Shown: positions 26,504 through 59,207 of the stretch, one piece after another
Position numbering within the stretch: position 1 is the first letter of the stretch
How the letters are laid out: every line of letters starts with the position of its first letter
From: Gammaproteobacteria bacterium
GTDB lineage: Bacteria > Pseudomonadota > Gammaproteobacteria > CAJXQU01
DNA length: 64,000 nt
NCBI GenBank assembly: GCA_965238175.1
Contig: CBDEGZ010000003.1
Location: 2,944,001 to 3,008,000, forward strand
Direction: 5' to 3'
Notes under the pieces: generated by a model
What the model was told of the DNA's origin: nothing
The model's database searches: none
Seen by the model: only the letters and a program-made list of their open reading frames with translations
Position numbers and translations under genes: made by a program

Positions 26504-26705
26504 TTGAATACCTCCACTTACAATCTAACACGTATTACAAGGTTTTTTTTTATAGTAGTAACTTTAGGATAGACCAGATCATCCTGTTCTAGCAAGCAAT
26601 CGTGAGTAAATAAGTAATGCTAATTTAACTGAAATTTATCAGGTTATTTAAAATCAAGTATTTAAAGGAAATAATGAATGTTAGTTCAAAAGTAATAATT
26701 TTGAT

Positions 26706-46724: not shown

Positions 46725-48509
46725 TCATCGTTTACAAATCATGGTTAATAATTCTTCGGCCGATAATTTTCTTAGCCAACTCTGTGACTCAATTTTTGAA
46801 AATTTTCTATCAATTTCCTCAATGAATTTTTGTGGCTCTGAAAGTATGAATTTTTGAGAATGGTAATTCGCTAGTCGAGTAATTAATTCAAGTTTTCTAT
46901 CGTCAAGGTGTTGGCTAGCTAGCTGTTTCAAAAACGACAAGATCATAGTAAGAAATTGATCAAGATTCTGAATAGAAACAATCGCTGGCAGCTGTCTCAA
47001 CTGCATAGGTCCAAATTCGTTTTCGGATAAAATAATTCCAACTTCTGAAAGTAATTTGGAATATTCATTAAACAGCTTAATATCATTTTTTCCAAAAATG
47101 ATATTAACAGGAAAAAGTAATGGCTTTGAAATAACCGAACCACTTTCTAATTCCAATTTAAGTTGTTGTAAACATATCGCAGCGGAAGCTTCTTTTATAT
47201 TAATAAGTATTAATTGATCATCTTCTTTTACTAATAACACTTCACCAACTTTCGCTATTTTCTGATCAGCCTCCTGTTCAAAATCTTGATTGAAATTTTG
47301 TGAGATTTTCGTTTCTTTCACTTTTACAGTTTTAAGATCAGGAAAATAAGTTGCACCTGATTCTTTAACCTCACCCTGGCTATTCTCTTGTTGGTAGTTT
47401 GGTCTTGATTTTAAATGTGAAACAGAAATTGATCGTGCATCAGGAACAACATTTTTTATGACACTTTCTTGATAAGTAATCGTGTTTTGATCAGATAAAA
47501 TTCGATTTAACGCACTATAAATAAAATCATGAATTGTTCTTCCTTCACGAAAACGCACTTCTGTTTTTGCCGGATGAACATTCACATCCACCATCGAAGG
47601 ATCCATTTGTAGATAAAGTGCAAAAGTGGCATAACGTCCTTCCGGAAGAATATCTTGATAAGCTTGTACAATCGCATGATTAATACGCTTATCTTTAATG
47701 CAACGTCCATTCAAACAAAAAAATTGTGCATCGTTCATGGTTCTTGCCGCGTCGGCATTCCCAACCCATCCGGTAAGCTTTATTTCACGATCCTGTGCAT
47801 CAATTCGACAGGCATTCTGCATAAACCGAGTTCCACAAACATCACTAACTCGCTTTTTCCCGTCATTGTCAGTAATTGACTTAAGATCAACTATTTGTCG
47901 TCCATTATGAGTTAAACGCACTGCAATTTCTGGATGACTTATAGAAAAATGTCGAACTAATTGTTGGATCTGATAGAACTCCGTTCGCTCTGTACGTAAA
48001 TATTTTCGTCTCGCCGGAACGTTAAAAAACAGATCTCGAATGTCAACCGTCGTACCCACTGGGTGTGATGCTGGTTCTGCTTCAACACCGGTAGGATCTT
48101 CTCGACCTTCAGATTTTATCATCCAGGCATGATCACTTTCCTGAAATCCAGACGTGACTGTTAATCGAGAAATGGAGGCAATACTCGGCAACGCTTCACC
48201 CCGAAAGCCCATGGTAATCAAATGCTGCAAATCATCAAGCTGGGTAATTTTACTGGTCGCATGTCGTGTCAACGCTAGTTTCAGATCGTCTTGATGAATA
48301 CCGATTCCATTATCTTTAACGCGAATTAAACCAACACCGCCATGTTCGATATCGATCACAATTTTCGATGCGCCTGCATCTAATGAATTGTCCAATAATT
48401 CTTTCACAACAGAGGCTGGCCGTTCAATTACTTCACCCGCCGCGATCTGATTGATCAAATGATCCGGTAATAACCTGACTTGCGATATTCGAGCGACAGC
48501 TTTTTGCAT
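46725..48509 (-). CDS. mutL: DNA mismatch repair protein MutL
   Basis: NQIAAGEVIERPASVVKEL, HATSK, GFRGEAL and DVNVHPAKTEVRF motifs; divergent C-terminal domain. Confidence 0.95.
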   Translation of the reverse strand: MQKAVARISQVRLLPDHLINQIAAGEVIERPASVVKELLDNSLDAGASKIVIDIEHGGVGLIRVKDNGIGIHQDDLKLALTRHATSKITQLDDLQHLITMGFRGEALPSIASISRLTVTSGFQESDHAWMIKSEGREDPTGVEAEPASHPVGTTVDIRDLFFNVPARRKYLRTERTEFYQIQQLVRHFSISHPEIAVRLTHNGRQIVDLKSITDNDGKKRVSDVCGTRFMQNACRIDAQDREIKLTGWVGNADAARTMNDAQFFCLNGRCIKDKRINHAIVQAYQDILPEGRYATFALYLQMDPSMVDVNVHPAKTEVRFREGRTIHDFIYSALNRILSDQNTITYQESVIKNVVPDARSISVSHLKSRPNYQQENSQGEVKESGATYFPDLKTVKVKETKISQNFNQDFEQEADQKIAKVGEVLLVKEDDQLILINIKEASAAICLQQLKLELESGSVISKPLLFPVNIIFGKNDIKLFNEYSKLLSEVGIILSENEFGPMQLRQLPAIVSIQNLDQFLTMILSFLKQLASQHLDDRKLELITRLANYHSQKFILSEPQKFIEEIDRKFSKIESQSWLRKLSAEELLTMICKR

Positions 48510-52267: not shown

Positions 52268-55200
52268 ATGGCGCTGAACCTGGTCGATTTTACACTTAAA
52301 AATAATCGTCTGTCGATTATCCTGACACTCGCCATTGTAGTTTGGGGATGTCTGGCTTACCTAAGTCTACCAAAGGCCGAAGATCCTGGGTTTGTTGTCC
52401 GGACTGCCATTGTTAACACTAAAATGCCCGGGGCAAGTGCTCAGCGAATAGAAGAATTAGTCACGTCTGTGATTGAAGAAGCCATTATGGAAATGCCTGA
52501 GTTAGACAATGTACAGAGTATTTCAAGAGAAGGCCTTTCATATATTACCGTCAACTTCAAGGAAAGTTACAAGGTGATGCGGCCTATATTTGATTCTCTA
52601 CGTCGAAAAATTGAAGCCGTTTCCCCTGATCTGCCGCAAGGTATACAGGGTCCTATCGTCGATGACGAATTTGGTGATGTCTTTGGTAGTCTGTTCACAC
52701 TCACCGGTGATGGTTTTAACTTAACCGAATTAGCCGATATAGCCGATGATATTCGGGATCAACTTATTGGCCTTGATTTAGTTTCAAAAGTTGAACTTTA
52801 CGGCAAACAAAATGAGGTGATCTATGTACAATATAGTAATGCACGTTTGAGCGAAATGGGGTTGAACCCTGCAATGCTTAGCGATGCGATCAGTAGTGTC
52901 AATGTTATATCACCCGGTGGTGACATCATCATTGGAGAGGAACGAATAAGTCTTGAACCAAGCGGTAATTTCTCCTCTTTGGATGATCTAAAACAAACCC
53001 TAATTCGTGATAAACAGAATAACCTTGTACAGCTCCAGGACATTGCTGATGTAACACGAGTACTAGAAGATCCGGCTACCAGTCTGGTGTATGCCAATGG
53101 GAAACCCGCAATGGTTCTCGCTATTTCAATGAATGAAGGTGGAGACATTCTCAAACTAGGCGAAGAGTTACGCGCATTTGCCAGTGACGTGCAATCATCA
53201 CTCCCACTGGGCGTAGATCTCAGAGAATCCGCATTTCAAGCAGACATTGTGGCATTAAAAATAGAAGATTTTATTTCTAGTATTTTGCAAGCAATCGTTA
53301 TTGTCTTCGTCGTACTGCTTGTTTTTCTGGGTCTACGGACAGCACTCGCTGTTGCGATATTAATCCCTTTGGCCATCTTGAGTACTTTTGCGTTTATGAC
53401 CGTGTTTGATATCACGATCAACCAGGTTTCGTTAGCCGGTTTAATCATTTCTCTCGGGTTGCTTGTTGATAATGGCATTGTTATCAACGAGTCTATAATG
53501 CTTAAAATGGAGAAAGGTAAAACAGGCATTGAAGCTGCCAGTTTGACTATTAATGAGCTTAAAATTCCTCTCCTGGTCGCTTCTCTAACAACCGTGGCCG
53601 CCTTTATGCCAATTGCATTAGCAGAGTCAGGAATAGGCGAGTTTTGTGCGGCAATTTGCTACATAGTTGCAATCTCACTGGGATCTTCATGGGTGTTTTC
53701 TGTCACCATTATTCCCGCTATTGCATCGCTATTACTAAAGGTAAAAAACACCAAGAAAAACAAATCAGATGAAACATCGCGTGGGTTATTTATTCGCCTT
53801 TATGGAAAGATAATTCAAATAGTACTTAGGTTTAGATGGGTTGCCATATTATTGGTAGTCTCTCTTTTTGGTACGGTAGGTTATGCATTAAGCCATGTCC
53901 CTGCAGTGTTTATCCCTCCCTCAGATGAGGCAATTGTTAGTGTAGAGTTAGATCTACCACTTGGCCGTGATATTGAAGTCACACGACAATTATCCGATCA
54001 GCTACAGACTACCTATGAGACCCTTAAGTACAACAGTAAAAATGACAGTGGCTTGATTACGGGTTGGACAAATTTTGTGGGTTCTAGCGCCCCAAAATTT
54101 AAACTGGGCTACAACCCCGGTGCCGGAAATCCAGCTCACGTATCCAGTATCGTGAATGTACGAAATACAGCCGCACTTGATCCAACAATTACAAAGCTAA
54201 GTGAGTACGTTGCTAATCATCACCCTGATGTAGACTTTAAAATTCAACGCTTATCGCAGGGTCCACCCGTCGCTTATCCGATACAAGTGCGCCTGAGTGG
54301 TCACAATATCAACGAACTGGAACTTCGTGCAGCCGCAATCAAGCAACAGTTAATAAACATTCCAGGTGTACTCACTATAAAAGATGACTGGGGTGTAAGA
54401 TCTAAAAAAATAGCGATCAATGTTAATCAGGAACGCGCACGTGCATCTGGCGTATCAAGCGCAGACGTCGCTGATTCATTACGGCTAAGTTTGAGTGGAA
54501 ATTCAGTCAGTGACTTTCGCGAAGGTGAAGACAGAATTCCCATTACTTTAATTACTGAAGGGATCGAGCGAAATGACCTGAGGATCATCAATGATTTAAC
54601 GATCAATTCTCAGACAGGTGAAAGTGTTAAATTAGCCCAGGTGGCGGACAACAAGGTGCAATGGTCTGCTTCAAATATTTTACGTAGAAATCGTGTCCGT
54701 ACCGTGACAATATCAGCGACATTATTCCAGCACTATACTGCGACCATGATTAATCAGACGTTTACTCCCTGGTTAGATGAGTTTACCGCTCAACTACCGC
54801 CTGGTTATTCTATAGAAATTGGTGGTGAATCAGAATCTTCTGATGATGCTAGCCAGTCTATCGTCGATAAACTACCTATAGCATTTATTTTTATCGTGCT
54901 ATTGCTGGTTGGCCAATTTAATTCACTACGTAAAGCGACCTTGATCATGTTAACTATTCCGATGGGTGTTATCGGCATGGCATGGGGATTATGGATCGCG
55001 AGTTCAACGTTTGGTTTCTTTACCATCCTCGGTCTATTGTCGCTGGCGGGAATTATTATTAATAACGCGATCGTCTTGATTGACAGTATTGATTCCTTTC
55101 GAGATCAAGACTTAAGTCCCTGGGATGCAATCGTCTCTGCCAGCGAATCAAGACTTAGACCAATATTACTCACAACGGCTACAACTTGTGGTGGCATGAT

Positions 55201-55348
55201 TCCTTTATGGCTTGGCGGAGGAATGTTTGAAACCATGGCGGTCACGATTTTCTTCGGTCTATTATTTGGCTCTGTAATAACGCTTGTAGTGGTACCTGCT
55301 TTATATGCAATTTTCTTTAAAGTCGCTGCCCCAGTTAAATCTGCTTAA
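52268..55348 (+). CDS. RND efflux permease
   Basis: LPKAEDP, PGASA..IE..V, GLLVDNGIV, GIIINNAIVLID and RLRPILLT motifs; 12-TM layout. Confidence 0.95.
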   Translation: MALNLVDFTLKNNRLSIILTLAIVVWGCLAYLSLPKAEDPGFVVRTAIVNTKMPGASAQRIEELVTSVIEEAIMEMPELDNVQSISREGLSYITVNFKESYKVMRPIFDSLRRKIEAVSPDLPQGIQGPIVDDEFGDVFGSLFTLTGDGFNLTELADIADDIRDQLIGLDLVSKVELYGKQNEVIYVQYSNARLSEMGLNPAMLSDAISSVNVISPGGDIIIGEERISLEPSGNFSSLDDLKQTLIRDKQNNLVQLQDIADVTRVLEDPATSLVYANGKPAMVLAISMNEGGDILKLGEELRAFASDVQSSLPLGVDLRESAFQADIVALKIEDFISSILQAIVIVFVVLLVFLGLRTALAVAILIPLAILSTFAFMTVFDITINQVSLAGLIISLGLLVDNGIVINESIMLKMEKGKTGIEAASLTINELKIPLLVASLTTVAAFMPIALAESGIGEFCAAICYIVAISLGSSWVFSVTIIPAIASLLLKVKNTKKNKSDETSRGLFIRLYGKIIQIVLRFRWVAILLVVSLFGTVGYALSHVPAVFIPPSDEAIVSVELDLPLGRDIEVTRQLSDQLQTTYETLKYNSKNDSGLITGWTNFVGSSAPKFKLGYNPGAGNPAHVSSIVNVRNTAALDPTITKLSEYVANHHPDVDFKIQRLSQGPPVAYPIQVRLSGHNINELELRAAAIKQQLINIPGVLTIKDDWGVRSKKIAINVNQERARASGVSSADVADSLRLSLSGNSVSDFREGEDRIPITLITEGIERNDLRIINDLTINSQTGESVKLAQVADNKVQWSASNILRRNRVRTVTISATLFQHYTATMINQTFTPWLDEFTAQLPPGYSIEIGGESESSDDASQSIVDKLPIAFIFIVLLLVGQFNSLRKATLIMLTIPMGVIGMAWGLWIASSTFGFFTILGLLSLAGIIINNAIVLIDSIDSFRDQDLSPWDAIVSASESRLRPILLTTATTCGGMIPLWLGGGMFETMAVTIFFGLLFGSVITLVVVPALYAIFFKVAAPVKSA

Positions 55349-55439
55349 ATAACCTGATGTGATGGTCTCCTCCCCCTAACGGCATCTAGGTGCCATGATT
55401 GAACTGACATACACACAATCAAAAGAGGAGAAGACCAAA

Positions 55440-56453
55440 ATGAAGACTACAACAATCGGGTTAGACATAGCAAAAAACGTATTTCATGCTGTCTGCTGTA
55501 ATCAACAAGGGCGTATAATCAAAAAGAAAATGTTAAAGCGAGCGCAGGTACTCTCCTTTTTTCAATCTCAACCTCCTTGTTTAGTCGCAATAGAATCTTG
55601 TGCAACGTCACAGTATTGGGCCCGAGCGATACAACAACAGGGACATCAGGTGAAATTACTACCACCTCAGCATGTTAACGCATTTCTAATCGGCAATAAG
55701 AATGATTATAACGATGCCTTGGCCATCGCCGTTGCTGCGAAACAACCTCATTTAAAAAGTGTGGGCATTAAATCAGTTGAGCAACAAGACAACCAGGCAC
55801 AACATAAAGCAAGAGACTTAGCGGTCAGACAAAGAACCGCATTATGTAACCAAATGAGAGCGCTTGTTGCAGAATATGGCATTAGCCTTCGTCCCGGCCT
55901 AAATACCCTACGTCAATCTATCCCGTTGCTATTAAGTGATGAGAACGAACGGTTGTCCGTTACTTTCAAAAGGATACTGCGCCAGCTAAAGGAACAATGG
56001 CAATCACTTGATGCCTGTATTGCGACATTTGACCAATTGATCATTCAATCGGCAAAAAACAATGCGATTTGCCAACGCTTACAAACTATTCCAGGGTTTG
56101 GGCCGATGGTCTCGAGCGCGTATTTTAATGAAGTGGGAAACGGCGCTCATTATCACAAAGGGCGCGATGTGTCCGCCTCATTAGGACTTGTTCCACGACA
56201 GTACAGTAGTGGTGGTAAAGAGGTGCTACTGGGGATCAGTAAACGCGGCAATAAATACCTTCGTTGTTTGTTAATTCTAGGCGCGAAGGCCGTGGTATCA
56301 AGAGCCAAAACGAAAGGCGATAAACTGAGTCAATGGATTAATCGTTTAGTTGAGACGCGGGGGCATAATCGAGCGTGTGTGGCGTATGCCAACAAAATGG
56401 CAAGAATGGCCTGGGCTATAACGGTTTCTGGTGATGACTACTCACCGGCCTAA
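55440..56453 (+). CDS. IS110-family recombinase/transposase
   Basis: DEDD RuvC residues (GLDIAK, AIES, KNDYNDA), Tnp domain IPGFG..., LGLVPRQYSSGG with the catalytic Ser, and GISKRGN.YLR. GAGGAG RBS before ATG 55440; frame intact. Confidence 0.96.
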   Translation: MKTTTIGLDIAKNVFHAVCCNQQGRIIKKKMLKRAQVLSFFQSQPPCLVAIESCATSQYWARAIQQQGHQVKLLPPQHVNAFLIGNKNDYNDALAIAVAAKQPHLKSVGIKSVEQQDNQAQHKARDLAVRQRTALCNQMRALVAEYGISLRPGLNTLRQSIPLLLSDENERLSVTFKRILRQLKEQWQSLDACIATFDQLIIQSAKNNAICQRLQTIPGFGPMVSSAYFNEVGNGAHYHKGRDVSASLGLVPRQYSSGGKEVLLGISKRGNKYLRCLLILGAKAVVSRAKTKGDKLSQWINRLVETRGHNRACVAYANKMARMAWAITVSGDDYSPA

Positions 56454-56683
56454 ATAGAGAGAACAAATCATTTCAACGAATTGCGAAGGTAAAACTAAAG
56501 ATGGCATAACAGGTCAAACCAGCCTATTGAAAACCTGTCGAGCTCAGGGGTAACTAATACCGATAACCTGATAAGGAAAATAGGCGCGTAATACATCCAG
56601 GTCAGAAGTTGAAAACTTCATTGAAGGCCGTATATATGACAGCAATCCTGTCCCTGTTATCTGAATGTTTTATCTTGCAATAC
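56454..56683 (+). ncRNA. Putative bridge/seek RNA of the IS1111 element (boundaries approximate)
   Basis: Stem GCCTATT/AATAGGC encloses an internal loop carrying target-matching 9-mers; a second loop carries a donor-matching ATATATGA. Confidence 0.75.
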
Positions 56684-56825
56684 GGGAGGAGACCATATAT
56701 GAACTCGGGATAAAAATGACCATAAAAACATTAAAAGACAATGACCGCACTCTTTTGCACTAAAAACGTCGATTTTTTCATAGAAAACTCTCCTAAATAC
56801 AGTGTAAGAATTTTCTACTTAAAAC

Positions 56826-59207
56826 TCAGATTGTTCTTCGGGGGATTACAATTATCTTACTCGACCAAAAAATCAGTATTAATATAGTAAGAATCGTGAT
56901 TATCAGACCTTCTTTTAATAACGGCGGGAAGTATTTTAGATCAATAATGTGCTGCCCTTTGCCCAATAACAGACCTGAAAAACCAGCATTAATTTTATAA
57001 ATATCAACTGCCTCATTGTTTACTGTTGCATGCCAACCAGAATCTTTAGGAATTGATAAAAATAACATTCCATCAGCTTCTAGATTTATATTGCCGGAAA
57101 TATCATCATCAGAAAATTTCGTCATTTTCATAACATTAAGTCTTCTCGAAGGGCAAGGATCAAATTCTGTGGCAGAACAAGTTAGCCCATCAAATTTTTC
57201 TGATATAAGTTCCATATTTTGATCTATCGAGGGTAAAAATCCAAATTGGAGTAAATTATCTCTTTCAGTAATATTCTCCATAGAAAAATACTTTTCTCGA
57301 TCAAGATACTTATCGTAAACAAACCCGAAAGGTAATGCCTCAGTCCTTTTAAAAACATGAATATCTCCGATAGTTTTTAGAAATTTTGAGGTCTCAGGTA
57401 TCACCTCTTCAGTTTTGGTCAGGTGATATTTGACACTTAATAGATTTGCTAAATCAGGTCTCTGCAGGGAAGTCCATCCTAGTATATTCATGCGTAAATT
57501 TGCTGGTGCATTGGGAACAGGAGGAATATTTAATGTATCAATAAACTCGAAATATGATGGAGTATTCAAAGAATTATATGAATCCATTCCCATATAATCC
57601 TGCACAACTGAATCATTCATACTTGAAATCCAACGATTTTTTTCAACCCTAAAAAAAGTATCATCGATACTCTCAAGATACTTAATAACATCATTTGTAT
57701 AACCAAAGAGATCAATCTCCTGATTATTAAGAAGTGCTTCTTTGTCTGCTTCCATCCCTTTCGTCAAAACATTTCTTTTTCCAAAAGTGTCACTATGTTC
57801 TGATACCATTTCCACAGACAACGTCATTATCAATATGGCAAGTGCAACGTATTTAGTAAATACATTTTTTGTCAGAAAAAATAACACTGCTCCATAGACA
57901 AGAATAAAAGCGATACTTTTCCAAGTTTTTATTACGTTATATTGATATATTGCTAATTCGTTTGCATATCGATGATTGATGAAAACCAGACTAATCAACA
58001 GAATAAAAATAGTCGTAATTAATAGCTTATAATTAACCTCTCTTTTTTCAAAGATCTCTTTCAACATAGAGGCTAACAATATAAGTTCTACAAAAATTAT
58101 GTTGTATCCCCAACGATATGTCGCATATTGAAATCCATTCATAATACGTGCAAAAAATGGAAATATCAGGAATACTAATACTATAAAAATACCAACGGAT
58201 ATAACTATTTTTCGTTTTCGATCAAAAAGGATAAAAGCCTGCGGAAATGTTACTAAAAATAGTAGCCCACAATACAACTGCATTGATTCGTAATAATTAA
58301 GAAAACCTATATAGGAAGAACCGATGCCTTGTAGATTATTGGAAAACAAACGACTAAATATAGAGAAATAATAATCGTAAGAGTTAAACAGAAACTGCAT
58401 ACGAAATATGCTCATTATTCCTTCGGTCGATGTTCTTGGACTTGATTTTAAAAGGTGATATTCAGGGAAAATGAATACTGCAACTAGCCCTACTGCAAGA
58501 AAGAATATGATTATAAATTTCCCTGTCGTTCTCAGAAAAAATTTCATATCAAATCCATAATCAAAATAGAATCTAAAAAGATAATAGGTAATTACGAAAA
58601 TAAATATCTGATAAAAAAAGTATATGTTTAACAAAAGTAAGGCCTTTGTTGACAACAACAATAACCATTTTCCTTCTGACATAAACCGTTCAAGTGCTAG
58701 CAATAGTAAAGGCAAGAAAACCACACTCGAACTGAAAAAATAATGTTGTCCCCATAACATTAAGTAACCATTAAAAGCGAAAAGAAAAGAACAAATAACG
58801 GCAGGAATGGCACCTACTTTTATATATGTAAAATAAAAGTAGGTGAAAAGTGCGGATAAAATTATTTTTAATATATAAACATATACCAATAAAAATGACA
58901 CATTTTCTGGACCAGCTATGAAATAGACAAGAGAAAATGGATCATACAAAAAGGCATATAAGGTTAGTACACTTGTCCCCACACCCATCTTAAAAGACCA
59001 GAATGAGAATTCTAAATTATGGATTTGTTCGGCTAAAAAATAATAAAAACGATAGTAAGAATAAAAAGTATCACTACCAATATCTCTGAACAAAAATAAT
59101 TTATTACCCACTAAAAATGATTTGAACAATACTAAGCAGGTTAAAAAAACTGCTGTGAAAAGTAGAATTAGATATTTTGGATGATCAAGAATACTTTTAG
59201 ATTGCAA
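56826..59207 (-). CDS. YfhO-family polytopic membrane glycosyltransferase (GT-C fold)
   Basis: N-terminal DIGSD...Y, WSFKMGVG, many TMs, FFRVE, and C-terminal LSIP.DSGW.A.VN...G.H.I.L.Y.PP followed by a TM. TTG start. Confidence 0.85.
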   Translation of the reverse strand: MQSKSILDHPKYLILLFTAVFLTCLVLFKSFLVGNKLFLFRDIGSDTFYSYYRFYYFLAEQIHNLEFSFWSFKMGVGTSVLTLYAFLYDPFSLVYFIAGPENVSFLLVYVYILKIILSALFTYFYFTYIKVGAIPAVICSFLFAFNGYLMLWGQHYFFSSSVVFLPLLLLALERFMSEGKWLLLLSTKALLLLNIYFFYQIFIFVITYYLFRFYFDYGFDMKFFLRTTGKFIIIFFLAVGLVAVFIFPEYHLLKSSPRTSTEGIMSIFRMQFLFNSYDYYFSIFSRLFSNNLQGIGSSYIGFLNYYESMQLYCGLLFLVTFPQAFILFDRKRKIVISVGIFIVLVFLIFPFFARIMNGFQYATYRWGYNIIFVELILLASMLKEIFEKREVNYKLLITTIFILLISLVFINHRYANELAIYQYNVIKTWKSIAFILVYGAVLFFLTKNVFTKYVALAILIMTLSVEMVSEHSDTFGKRNVLTKGMEADKEALLNNQEIDLFGYTNDVIKYLESIDDTFFRVEKNRWISSMNDSVVQDYMGMDSYNSLNTPSYFEFIDTLNIPPVPNAPANLRMNILGWTSLQRPDLANLLSVKYHLTKTEEVIPETSKFLKTIGDIHVFKRTEALPFGFVYDKYLDREKYFSMENITERDNLLQFGFLPSIDQNMELISEKFDGLTCSATEFDPCPSRRLNVMKMTKFSDDDISGNINLEADGMLFLSIPKDSGWHATVNNEAVDIYKINAGFSGLLLGKGQHIIDLKYFPPLLKEGLIITILTILILIFWSSKIIVIPRRTI

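Follow-up and report, generated by a model that had tools for sequence, protein, structure and literature searches.

Guide RNAs of insertion sequences (ISs) of the IS1111 group are in print as seekRNAs and as bridge RNAs. The seekRNAs of ISEc11, ISPa11, ISKpn4 and ISPst6 co-purify with their transposases, and the seekRNA of ISEc11 has been reprogrammed (PMC11187229). According to PMC11208160, 93.0% of IS1111 elements have a predicted bridge RNA in their right end, and the target- and donor-binding nucleotides of ISPa11 and two other elements were inspected. Here we describe an IS located in a 64,000-nt stretch of DNA from a Gammaproteobacteria bacterium (GenBank assembly GCA_965238175.1, contig CBDEGZ010000003.1, positions 2,944,001 to 3,008,000 of the forward strand), to which we refer as the window. 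A reading made from the sequence alone had proposed that this stretch carries an intact IS110/IS1111 recombinase together with a bispecific RNA encoded 3' of its gene. Comparison with relatives makes it highly likely that the element is an active IS1111 element with a bispecific guide RNA, and that its 3' region encodes a structured RNA of ~200 nt of the bridge RNA or seekRNA type. The element is a new IS1111 orthologue; the class, as the sequence-only reading had recognised, the location of the RNA in IS1111 elements and the logic are already published.

Among the described systems, ISPa11 from Pseudomonas aeruginosa resembles the window element in having its RNA 3' of the gene and in the order of its guides (PMC11187229; PMC11208160), with the match to the top strand lying 5' of the match to the bottom strand, as published for IS1111 seekRNAs in general (PMC11187229). 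Both elements insert at a CG or TG dinucleotide of a repeated extragenic target, whereas the target of the window element (TAACC-TG-AGCTCG) and its host lineage are different. Some relatives of the window element occupy a target of the ISPa11 type, such as L163 (transposase 54% identical), which lies in GTAGGG-CG-CAATAACCG; the ISPa11 target is listed as GTAGGGCGaATAACCGC in a review table (PMC13604230). These relatives share the inverted repeat and the RNA scaffold of the window element. Judged from the target match of the relatives, the window element very probably belongs to the ISPa11 branch.

ISEc11 from E. coli is the same kind of element with the same kind of RNA, and in both cases a 13-bp target is read by two overlapping segments (PMC11187229). 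Natural retargeting, described for ISEc11 versus ISXne4 (PMC11187229), is found on a larger scale among the relatives of the window element. A more distant counterpart is IS621 of the IS110 group, which shares with the window element a DEDD recombinase and a bispecific RNA carrying both a target and a donor loop (PMC11208160; PMC11208158), the two segments of each loop pairing with opposite strands around a shared core dinucleotide. Unlike the window element, IS621 carries its RNA in the left end upstream of the gene, with the guide order reversed, uses the core CT instead of TG/CG, and is devoid of long subterminal inverted repeats.

The window element is an intact IS110-family IS of the IS1111 group that has been recently active. 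A transposase of 330-350 aa with a C-terminal GL-P----S(t)G motif defines the group (PMC11187229), and features of this element are also described for the group in PMC11208160. Both of these characters are present here, as are inverted repeats within the range of 7-17 bp and a longer non-coding region 3' of the gene (246 nt, vs 79 nt on the 5' side). The protein matched PF01548 (3.6e-16) and PF02371 (6.4e-20), and scored 302.8 bits against NF033542, 'IS110 family RNA-guided transposase' (cut-off 140); together with the 13-bp inverted repeats, these matches bear out the family assignment of the sequence-only reading. All 15 sequences of an alignment share D10, E53, D90 and D93. We chose the start MKTTT, as used in the relatives, over the longer open reading frame starting at 55395, which the relatives do not use. 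The nearest matches to the transposase have identities of 83% (from a metagenome) and 79% (from Shewanella, under the name 'IS110 family RNA-guided transposase').

The borders of the element read ...AAATAACC-TGA on the left and TGA-ACTCGGGATA... on the right, with terminal extensions outside the inverted repeats of 4 nt (TGTG) on the left and 3 nt (ATA) on the right. The same inverted repeat is present in most relatives of at least 50% identity. The empty site that had been deduced by removing the element proved real: this genome also contains uninterrupted sites TTAACCTGAACTCGGGATAAG with a single TGA, of which G000:C3:123566 and G000:C3:2865108 are examples, and the boundaries and the single shared TGA are therefore correct. 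In the host genome there are 25 copies, 24 of them full-length and one truncated by a contig start; 23 are identical to the window copy, and two differ from it by one base each. The left flank reads AACCTGA in 25 of 25 copies, preceded by T at -5 in 24 of 25, and the right flank begins with TGA in 24 of 24 copies, with the consensus ACTCGGGATAAG. Insertion is thus site- and orientation-specific with a duplication no longer than the shared core, as is characteristic of IS1111 elements.

The proposal of a bispecific RNA had started from short matches between the 3' region and the borders of the element, all of which we recovered as stated. ATAACCTGA at 56563-71 is identical to 55349-57, and CGAGCTCAG at 56539-47 matches the bottom strand of C+TGA+ACTCG at 8/9 positions. 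ATATATGA at 56632-39 is identical to 56695-702, while ACATC at 56593-97 is complementary to GATGT at 55356-60. The helices said to frame these segments were likewise recovered at their coordinates: the outer stem GCCTATT (56522-28) / AATAGGC (56579-85), the inner hairpin GGTA-ACTAA-TACC (56549-61) and the hairpin GAAGTT-GAA-AACTTC (56605-19). In composition-preserving shuffles of the 230-nt region, the exact 9-mer appeared by chance in 337 of 200,000, a match of at least 8/9 to the second segment in 310 of 20,000, and both together in 9 of 200,000.

To obtain an alignment of the 3' region, we gathered relatives on contigs of genomes (464 confirmed loci, of which 80 were kept) and of metagenomes (80 kept of 423). 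Loci with a recognisable right end and a 5' anchor were retained (77), and L177, whose 303-nt region contains an insertion, was excluded. The resulting alignment, A2, comprises the 3' regions of 76 relatives, with transposases 46-77% identical, and of the window element (77 rows). RNAalifold predicted 38 base pairs on A2, 23 of them with compensatory changes, and the addition of two outer stems spotted by eye brought the structure to 51 pairs. Across the 77 sequences, 93.8% of the cells of this structure are paired, compared with 31.8-38.1% when the partners are slid by 1-3 columns, and 32 of the 51 pairs have changed on both sides. None of 500 shuffles reached the observed values, a control that is inflated by the relatedness of the sequences. 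The guides are thus held in internal loops of a conserved structured scaffold, as in seekRNAs.

Pairs of the G-U type are frequent in this scaffold (for example, 28 U-G at columns 55/110 and 22 G-U at columns 30/211) and would be A-C on the other strand; the folded strand is therefore the + strand. This strand specificity bears on the alternative that the matching segments act as single-stranded DNA during transposition, like the guide sequences of IS200/IS605 elements. Sequence matches by themselves cannot separate RNA from DNA, but a strand-specific fold rich in G-U pairs and the membership of the protein in a family named 'RNA-guided transposase' both speak for RNA, and we consider a DNA guide very improbable.

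We then compared both target-loop strands, taken by column extraction from A2, with the flanks of each locus; 11 of the 77 rows had no usable left flank and one had no usable right flank. The 3' strand agreed with its own left flank at positions -5 to -1 with an identity of 0.77-0.98, as opposed to 0.31-0.40 for the flanks of other loci, and the 5' strand agreed with its own right flank at +1 to +6 with identities of 0.96, 0.95, 0.92, 0.83, 0.71 and 0.70, as opposed to 0.22-0.40 for other loci. Beyond these positions the agreement vanished, to 0.11 at -6 (background 14%) and to 0.30 at +7. Summed over the segments, the left guide matched its own flank at 4.65 of 6 positions vs 1.79 for other loci (66 loci), and the right guide at 5.37 of 7 vs 2.15 (76 loci). 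For 58 distinct guide pairs, the agreement with the own target was 10.09 of 13 positions, while permuted assignments gave a mean of 4.15 (sd 0.24, maximum 5.17), and none of 10,000 permutations was as high. Among 25 targets differing mutually at 6 or more of the 13 positions, the values were 10.20 and 3.41. Covariation of guides with insertion sites across homologs had been set beforehand as one test of the proposal, and it is clearly present.

From this comparison, the guided target of the window element is TAACC-TG-AGCTCG, with a footprint of 5+2+6. Segment 56538-48 is complementary to the top strand and 56564-72 to the bottom strand, the two overlapping at CC-TG-A. The one-mismatch insertion predicted by the sequence-only reading is confirmed, with C56543 facing A56703 at +2, where the guide expects G. 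Its 9-mer guide needs to be shortened: TAACC and TG are guided, but the A at -6 is coincidental, matching the guide in 11% of the relatives and being present in just 6 of the 25 copies of the host genome. Similarly, TGA does flank the window element on both sides, but the core shared with the relatives is just TG or CG, the dinucleotide common to target and donor, and the family-wide core is YG. The A that follows TG in the window element serves twice, as target position +1 and as the base with which the IS left end begins, and the AT closing the match of the 3' strand corresponds to the first two bases of the left end.

One could instead see in the structure a 3' untranslated region, a terminator or another regulator of the transposase gene, the flank matches being chance or remnants of a target duplication. 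A terminator-like hairpin is indeed called at 56638-52, and the fold of the single sequence is only modestly better than shuffles (z = -2.68). However, the joint chance frequency of the two matches given above is hard to reconcile with such an origin, and the matches move with the flanks in relatives having unrelated targets. Situated 130 to 160 nt within the element, the segments are therefore not a target duplication. We give this explanation practically no credence.

The second loop was compared with the ends of the IS itself. In a set of wider relatives, down to 40% identity, 110 of 117 loci had the right-end 7-mer (the last five IS bases plus the core) again in their own 3' region, at the same place of the scaffold; outside the two commonest forms of the 7-mer, this held for 32 of 38 loci. 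The 7-mer occurs in 13 forms, among them ATGTACG, ATACATG, ATCTATG, ATGTATG, ACACATG and ATGCATG, and in 1404 comparisons a 7-mer of another class turned up in an element's 3' region 8 times. In the set of 77 close relatives, the donor-loop 3' strand is nearly constant except for the T/C of the core. In 66 of the 77 rows, this base is consistent at the right junction, in the 3' strand of the donor loop and in each target-loop strand; the left junction is readable in 57 of those 66 and agrees in 46. On a FastTree phylogeny of 75 transposases, computed without L145 and L064 (gene cut or with stops), the core base has changed at least 8-10 times.

For the left end, the base located 5' of CAT in the donor-loop 5' strand forms a Watson-Crick pair with left-end position +4 in 99 of 109 loci, comprising 52 A:T, 37 G:C, 8 T:A and 2 C:G pairs, compared with a shuffled mean of 43.5 (0 of 5000 as high). 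Position +5 can pair in 91 of the 109 loci, with 51 Watson-Crick and 40 G-U pairs, and in the window element U56592 can likewise wobble with G55361. This count left aside 39 loci, in which the inverted-repeat score was below 10 (20 loci), no CAT stood at the repeat end (10), no 7-mer (7) or no ATG (1) was present, or the locus was cut (1). Within the 77 close relatives the support is weak, with 7 of 13 loci that have a T at left-end +4 showing the matching A. Overall, covariation points to a second loop that reads both IS ends, a role that is firmly supported for the right-end segment and reasonably so for the left-end segment, and in the relatives the RNA appears bispecific, as had been proposed. 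Such a role had previously been predicted for IS1111 by inspecting single elements, to which the set of relatives adds comparative support.

We also considered a 'handshake', in which the bases following the donor-loop 7-mer would recognise the right half of the target. Its signal is weak, with a match at +1 in 42 of 77 (own identity 0.55 vs 0.39 for other loci) and an identity of 0.38 vs 0.31 at +2, and we do not claim it.

The host genome offers a further view of the guide at work. We sorted all of its TAACCTG sites by the number of right-half positions (of 6) matching the guide. Nine of 12 sites with five matches are occupied, 7 of 20 with four and 5 of 39 with three, followed by 1 of 114 with two, 1 of 211 with one and 0 of 92 with none; a single site has all six matches and is not occupied (0/1). 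AACCTG sites lacking the T at -5 are occupied in 1 of 1882 cases. The genome can thus be used as a read-out of mismatch tolerance, in which a fixed mismatch at +2 is tolerated and occupancy drops steeply below four of six right-half matches.

As its usual target, the element uses the terminal inverted repeat of a repeat of ~205 bp resembling a miniature inverted-repeat transposable element (MITE), present in about 10 copies in the genome. Its terminal inverted repeats, TGAACTCGGGATAAGAA, differ from the guide at +2 only (A, not G). In a full copy such as G000:C3:123566-123775, one end is empty and the other occupied, while at the window site just ~45 bp of one end are left (56700-56745). The repeat matched no Rfam family at E values up to 1. 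Partridge and Hall are said to have found in 2003 that IS4321 and IS5075 of the IS1111 group insert in the 38-bp ends of Tn21-family transposons. These elements and the window element would thus have in common that they insert at one fixed point within the terminal inverted repeat of a different mobile element, the target being the Tn21-family ends in one case and the end of the MITE-like repeat in the other. In a plasmid collection, the DNA-level search gave no match to the element, and the protein search gave relatives only ~45% identical, annotated 'IS110 family transposase' without an IS name; these are possibly IS4321 or IS5075. For the host, MITE ends and intergenic repeats serve as landing pads, and the 25 near-identical copies are substrates for rearrangement.

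Several observations weigh against an active element with a bispecific RNA, or against the strength of its support. The relatives are not independent of each other, so that shuffle counts overstate significance. For the core of the donor loop, just five supported independent pairs are available, of which four changed in the same direction and none in the opposite one (p = 0.125), and for the left-end segment the three independent pairs among close relatives showed no coupled change (a mean of 0.6 the same way). In the window element itself, the left-end segment amounts to five Watson-Crick pairs and one G-U pair, with the T of the core unpaired. The only perfect TAACC-TG-AGCTCG site of the genome, at C3:393938, is empty, and most occupied sites carry the mismatch at +2, although +2 fits the guide in 95% of the relatives. 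Recombination among the near-identical copies may also have exchanged flanks and blurred the occupancy counts. Finally, region 55000-57200 gave no match at E values up to 1 to the 4227 families of Rfam 15.

A last point comes from ISEc11, in which an 82-nt RNA having the target loop only was sufficient to support transposition and was even more efficient than the long form, whose role was called unknown (PMC11187229); the second loop may therefore not be required. It could be that only the first loop, as part of a short seekRNA (~56509-56600), guides the window element, with the second loop acting as a scaffold for protein binding or processing and the ends being recognised through their inverted repeats. 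The strong conservation of the subterminal inverted repeats would fit, as would the shortness of the left-end segment here and its failure in the test of independent pairs among close relatives. Nothing, however, would lead a pure scaffold to reproduce the ends of the IS and the core. Across nine sequence classes, the 3' strand of the second loop changes with the last five IS bases and the core, and its 5' strand tracks left-end +4 through four base states, in the counts given above. We therefore regard guidance by the first loop alone as unlikely. ISEc11 was tested experimentally and its short form was enough, whereas for the window element covariation argues that the second loop also reads DNA.

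In the scheme that we favour for the active, bispecific element, the two segments of the target loop would pair with the target, read as TAACC-TG-AGCTCG, and those of the second 12+12 loop with the IS ends as joined in the excised circle, the two sides reading ...ATATA-TG and TG-ATGT... With this RNA bound, the DEDD transposase would hold the circle against the target and carry out strand exchange at the TG(A) common to both, leaving the element inserted in one orientation. Comparison makes this mechanism well supported. Anatomy, copy number, an RNA structure supported by covariation, the covariation of guides with targets and ends and the dose-response of occupancy were observed here. Transcription from a junction promoter, processing, binding by the transposase and the chemistry would follow what is published for relatives.

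A candidate for such a promoter can be recognised. TTGCAA near the end of the 3' region is followed by a spacer of 17 nt and then, in the circle, by a hexamer made of the last two IS bases, TG and the first two IS bases, and CTTGCAA is nearly invariant in the 77 relatives. A promoter scan found no promoter-like site on the + strand of the integrated element. Judging by these motifs, TTGCAA and the junction hexamer would make a promoter only in the circle, an arrangement that has been proposed for ISEc11 (PMC11187229) and is reviewed in PMC12288879.

We give even chances to a broader proposition, namely that the long 3' RNA of the ISPa11-like branch is a complete bispecific bridge RNA with two equal 12+12 loops and that its donor recognition is RNA-guided as in IS621. 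Were this true, the sufficiency of a short seekRNA would be a special case and not the natural mechanism, and the branch would provide a natural series of ~60 distinct guide-target pairs. Since this series includes relatives with unlike junction cores (TG vs CG, YA vs YG), it could serve to locate the strand-exchange points of IS1111 elements. RNA-guided IS110/IS1111 recombinases are under development as genome-insertion tools, and each natural orthologue with a readable guide code enlarges the toolbox. The window element is compact, with a 338-aa protein and a predicted RNA of ~200 nt, and its 25 near-identical copies speak for recent activity.

Table 1. Coordinates of the element, its predicted RNA and its target within the window
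Feature	Position	Strand	Remarks
IS body, 1342 bp	55358..56699	+	TGA on both sides (55355-57, 56700-02)
Left target half as present, ATAACC + TGA	55349..55357	+	guided: TAACC 55350-54 + TG 55355-56
Left subterminal inverted repeat ATGGTCTCCTCCC	55362..55374	+	13-bp repeat paired with 56684-96
Transposase gene, 338 aa	55437..56453	+	DEDD/RuvC-like N-terminal domain, C-terminal PF02371, motif GLVPRQYSSG
Predicted guide RNA, long form, ~200 nt	56481..56680	+	closed by stems P1 and P2; ends predicted
Stem P1	56481-94 / 56668-80		
Stem P2	56500-06 / 56655-61		
Stem A	56509-13 / 56647-51		
Target-binding module	56522..56585	+	stems B and C, 12+12 internal loop, hairpin D
Stem B	56522-29 / 56578-85		compensatory changes in 7/8 pairs
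Stem C	56534-36 / 56574-76		
Target loop, 5' strand	56537..56548	+	complementary to target top strand -2 to +6; core complement CA 56545-46
Stem D	56549-52 / 56558-61		compensatory changes in 4/4 pairs
Target loop, 3' strand	56562..56573	+	= target top strand: TAACC 56564-68, TG 56569-70, then AT
Donor-binding module	56586..56643	+	stem E, 12+12 internal loop, stem G, hairpin H
Stem E	56586-87 / 56642-43		invariant
Donor loop, 5' strand	56588..56599	+	ACATC 56593-97 complementary to core G + left-end ATGT (55356-60)
Stem G	56600-03 / 56626-29		compensatory changes in 2/4 pairs
Stem H	56605-09 / 56615-19		compensatory changes in 5/5 pairs
Donor loop, 3' strand	56630..56641	+	ATATATG 56632-38 = last 5 IS bases + TG (56695-701)
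TTGCAA, possible -35 of circle-junction promoter	56675..56680	+	motif inference
Right subterminal inverted repeat GGGAGGAGACCAT, then ATA (56697-99)	56684..56696	+	
Right target half, TG(A) + ACTCGGGATAA onward	56700..56745	+	one end of MITE-like repeat

At the window site, two convergent genes enclose the IS, which lies 6 nt past the stop codon of a gene for an RND-type transporter. Two more exact copies of ATAACCTGA are located in the window outside the IS, at 48470-48478 (+) and 26639-26647 (-); both are unoccupied, and the sequence following them is unlike the right target half. In the seven genomes of the order, all of one genus, the element was found only in the window's genome (G000) and in none of the six other species, with a 40% relative in G005. 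Contigs of three sequencing runs of one sample, probably the source of the assembly, contain the IS as a collapsed repeat (X2, depth 139 vs 6-9 for the flanks) and no joint; they are uninformative either way on circles or empty alleles.

The two variant copies of the host genome are located at G000:C3:747417-748761 and 393960-395304. One of the two differences is an A>G change beside stem G of the donor module (equivalent to window position 56625), and the other a C>T change within the transposase gene (equivalent to 56078), both outside the guide segments. An IS copy lies 22 bp away from the empty perfect site at C3:393938, on the opposite strand.

Junctions of mixed type occur among the relatives. 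In 11 of the 77 (L195, L196, L038, L206, L186, L191, L175, L039, L185, L212 and L041), the left junction is TG, with CG at the right junction and in three guide segments. More distant relatives have YA at the left and YG at the right junction, Y being identical at both. The core therefore need not be the same at the two junctions, and these differences may bear on the position of strand exchange.

A second repeat, a ~60-bp palindrome beginning with CTTAACCTGACAGTCGG and partly in tandem, is found at ~50 places on C3 of the host genome. It contains the left half and the core of the target, its right half fits the guide at 1 of 6 positions, and one of the ~50 is occupied; an occupied example forms the right flank of the IS copy at C3 589241. 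C3 also carries relics: a decayed related IS, 79% identical over the first 387 nt and with a left junction of the same kind, two left-end fragments standing alone, and two left ends joined head to head as a perfect palindrome (G000:C3:2357914-2358400; 1154719-1154798; 2897434-2897503; 1393277-1393336).

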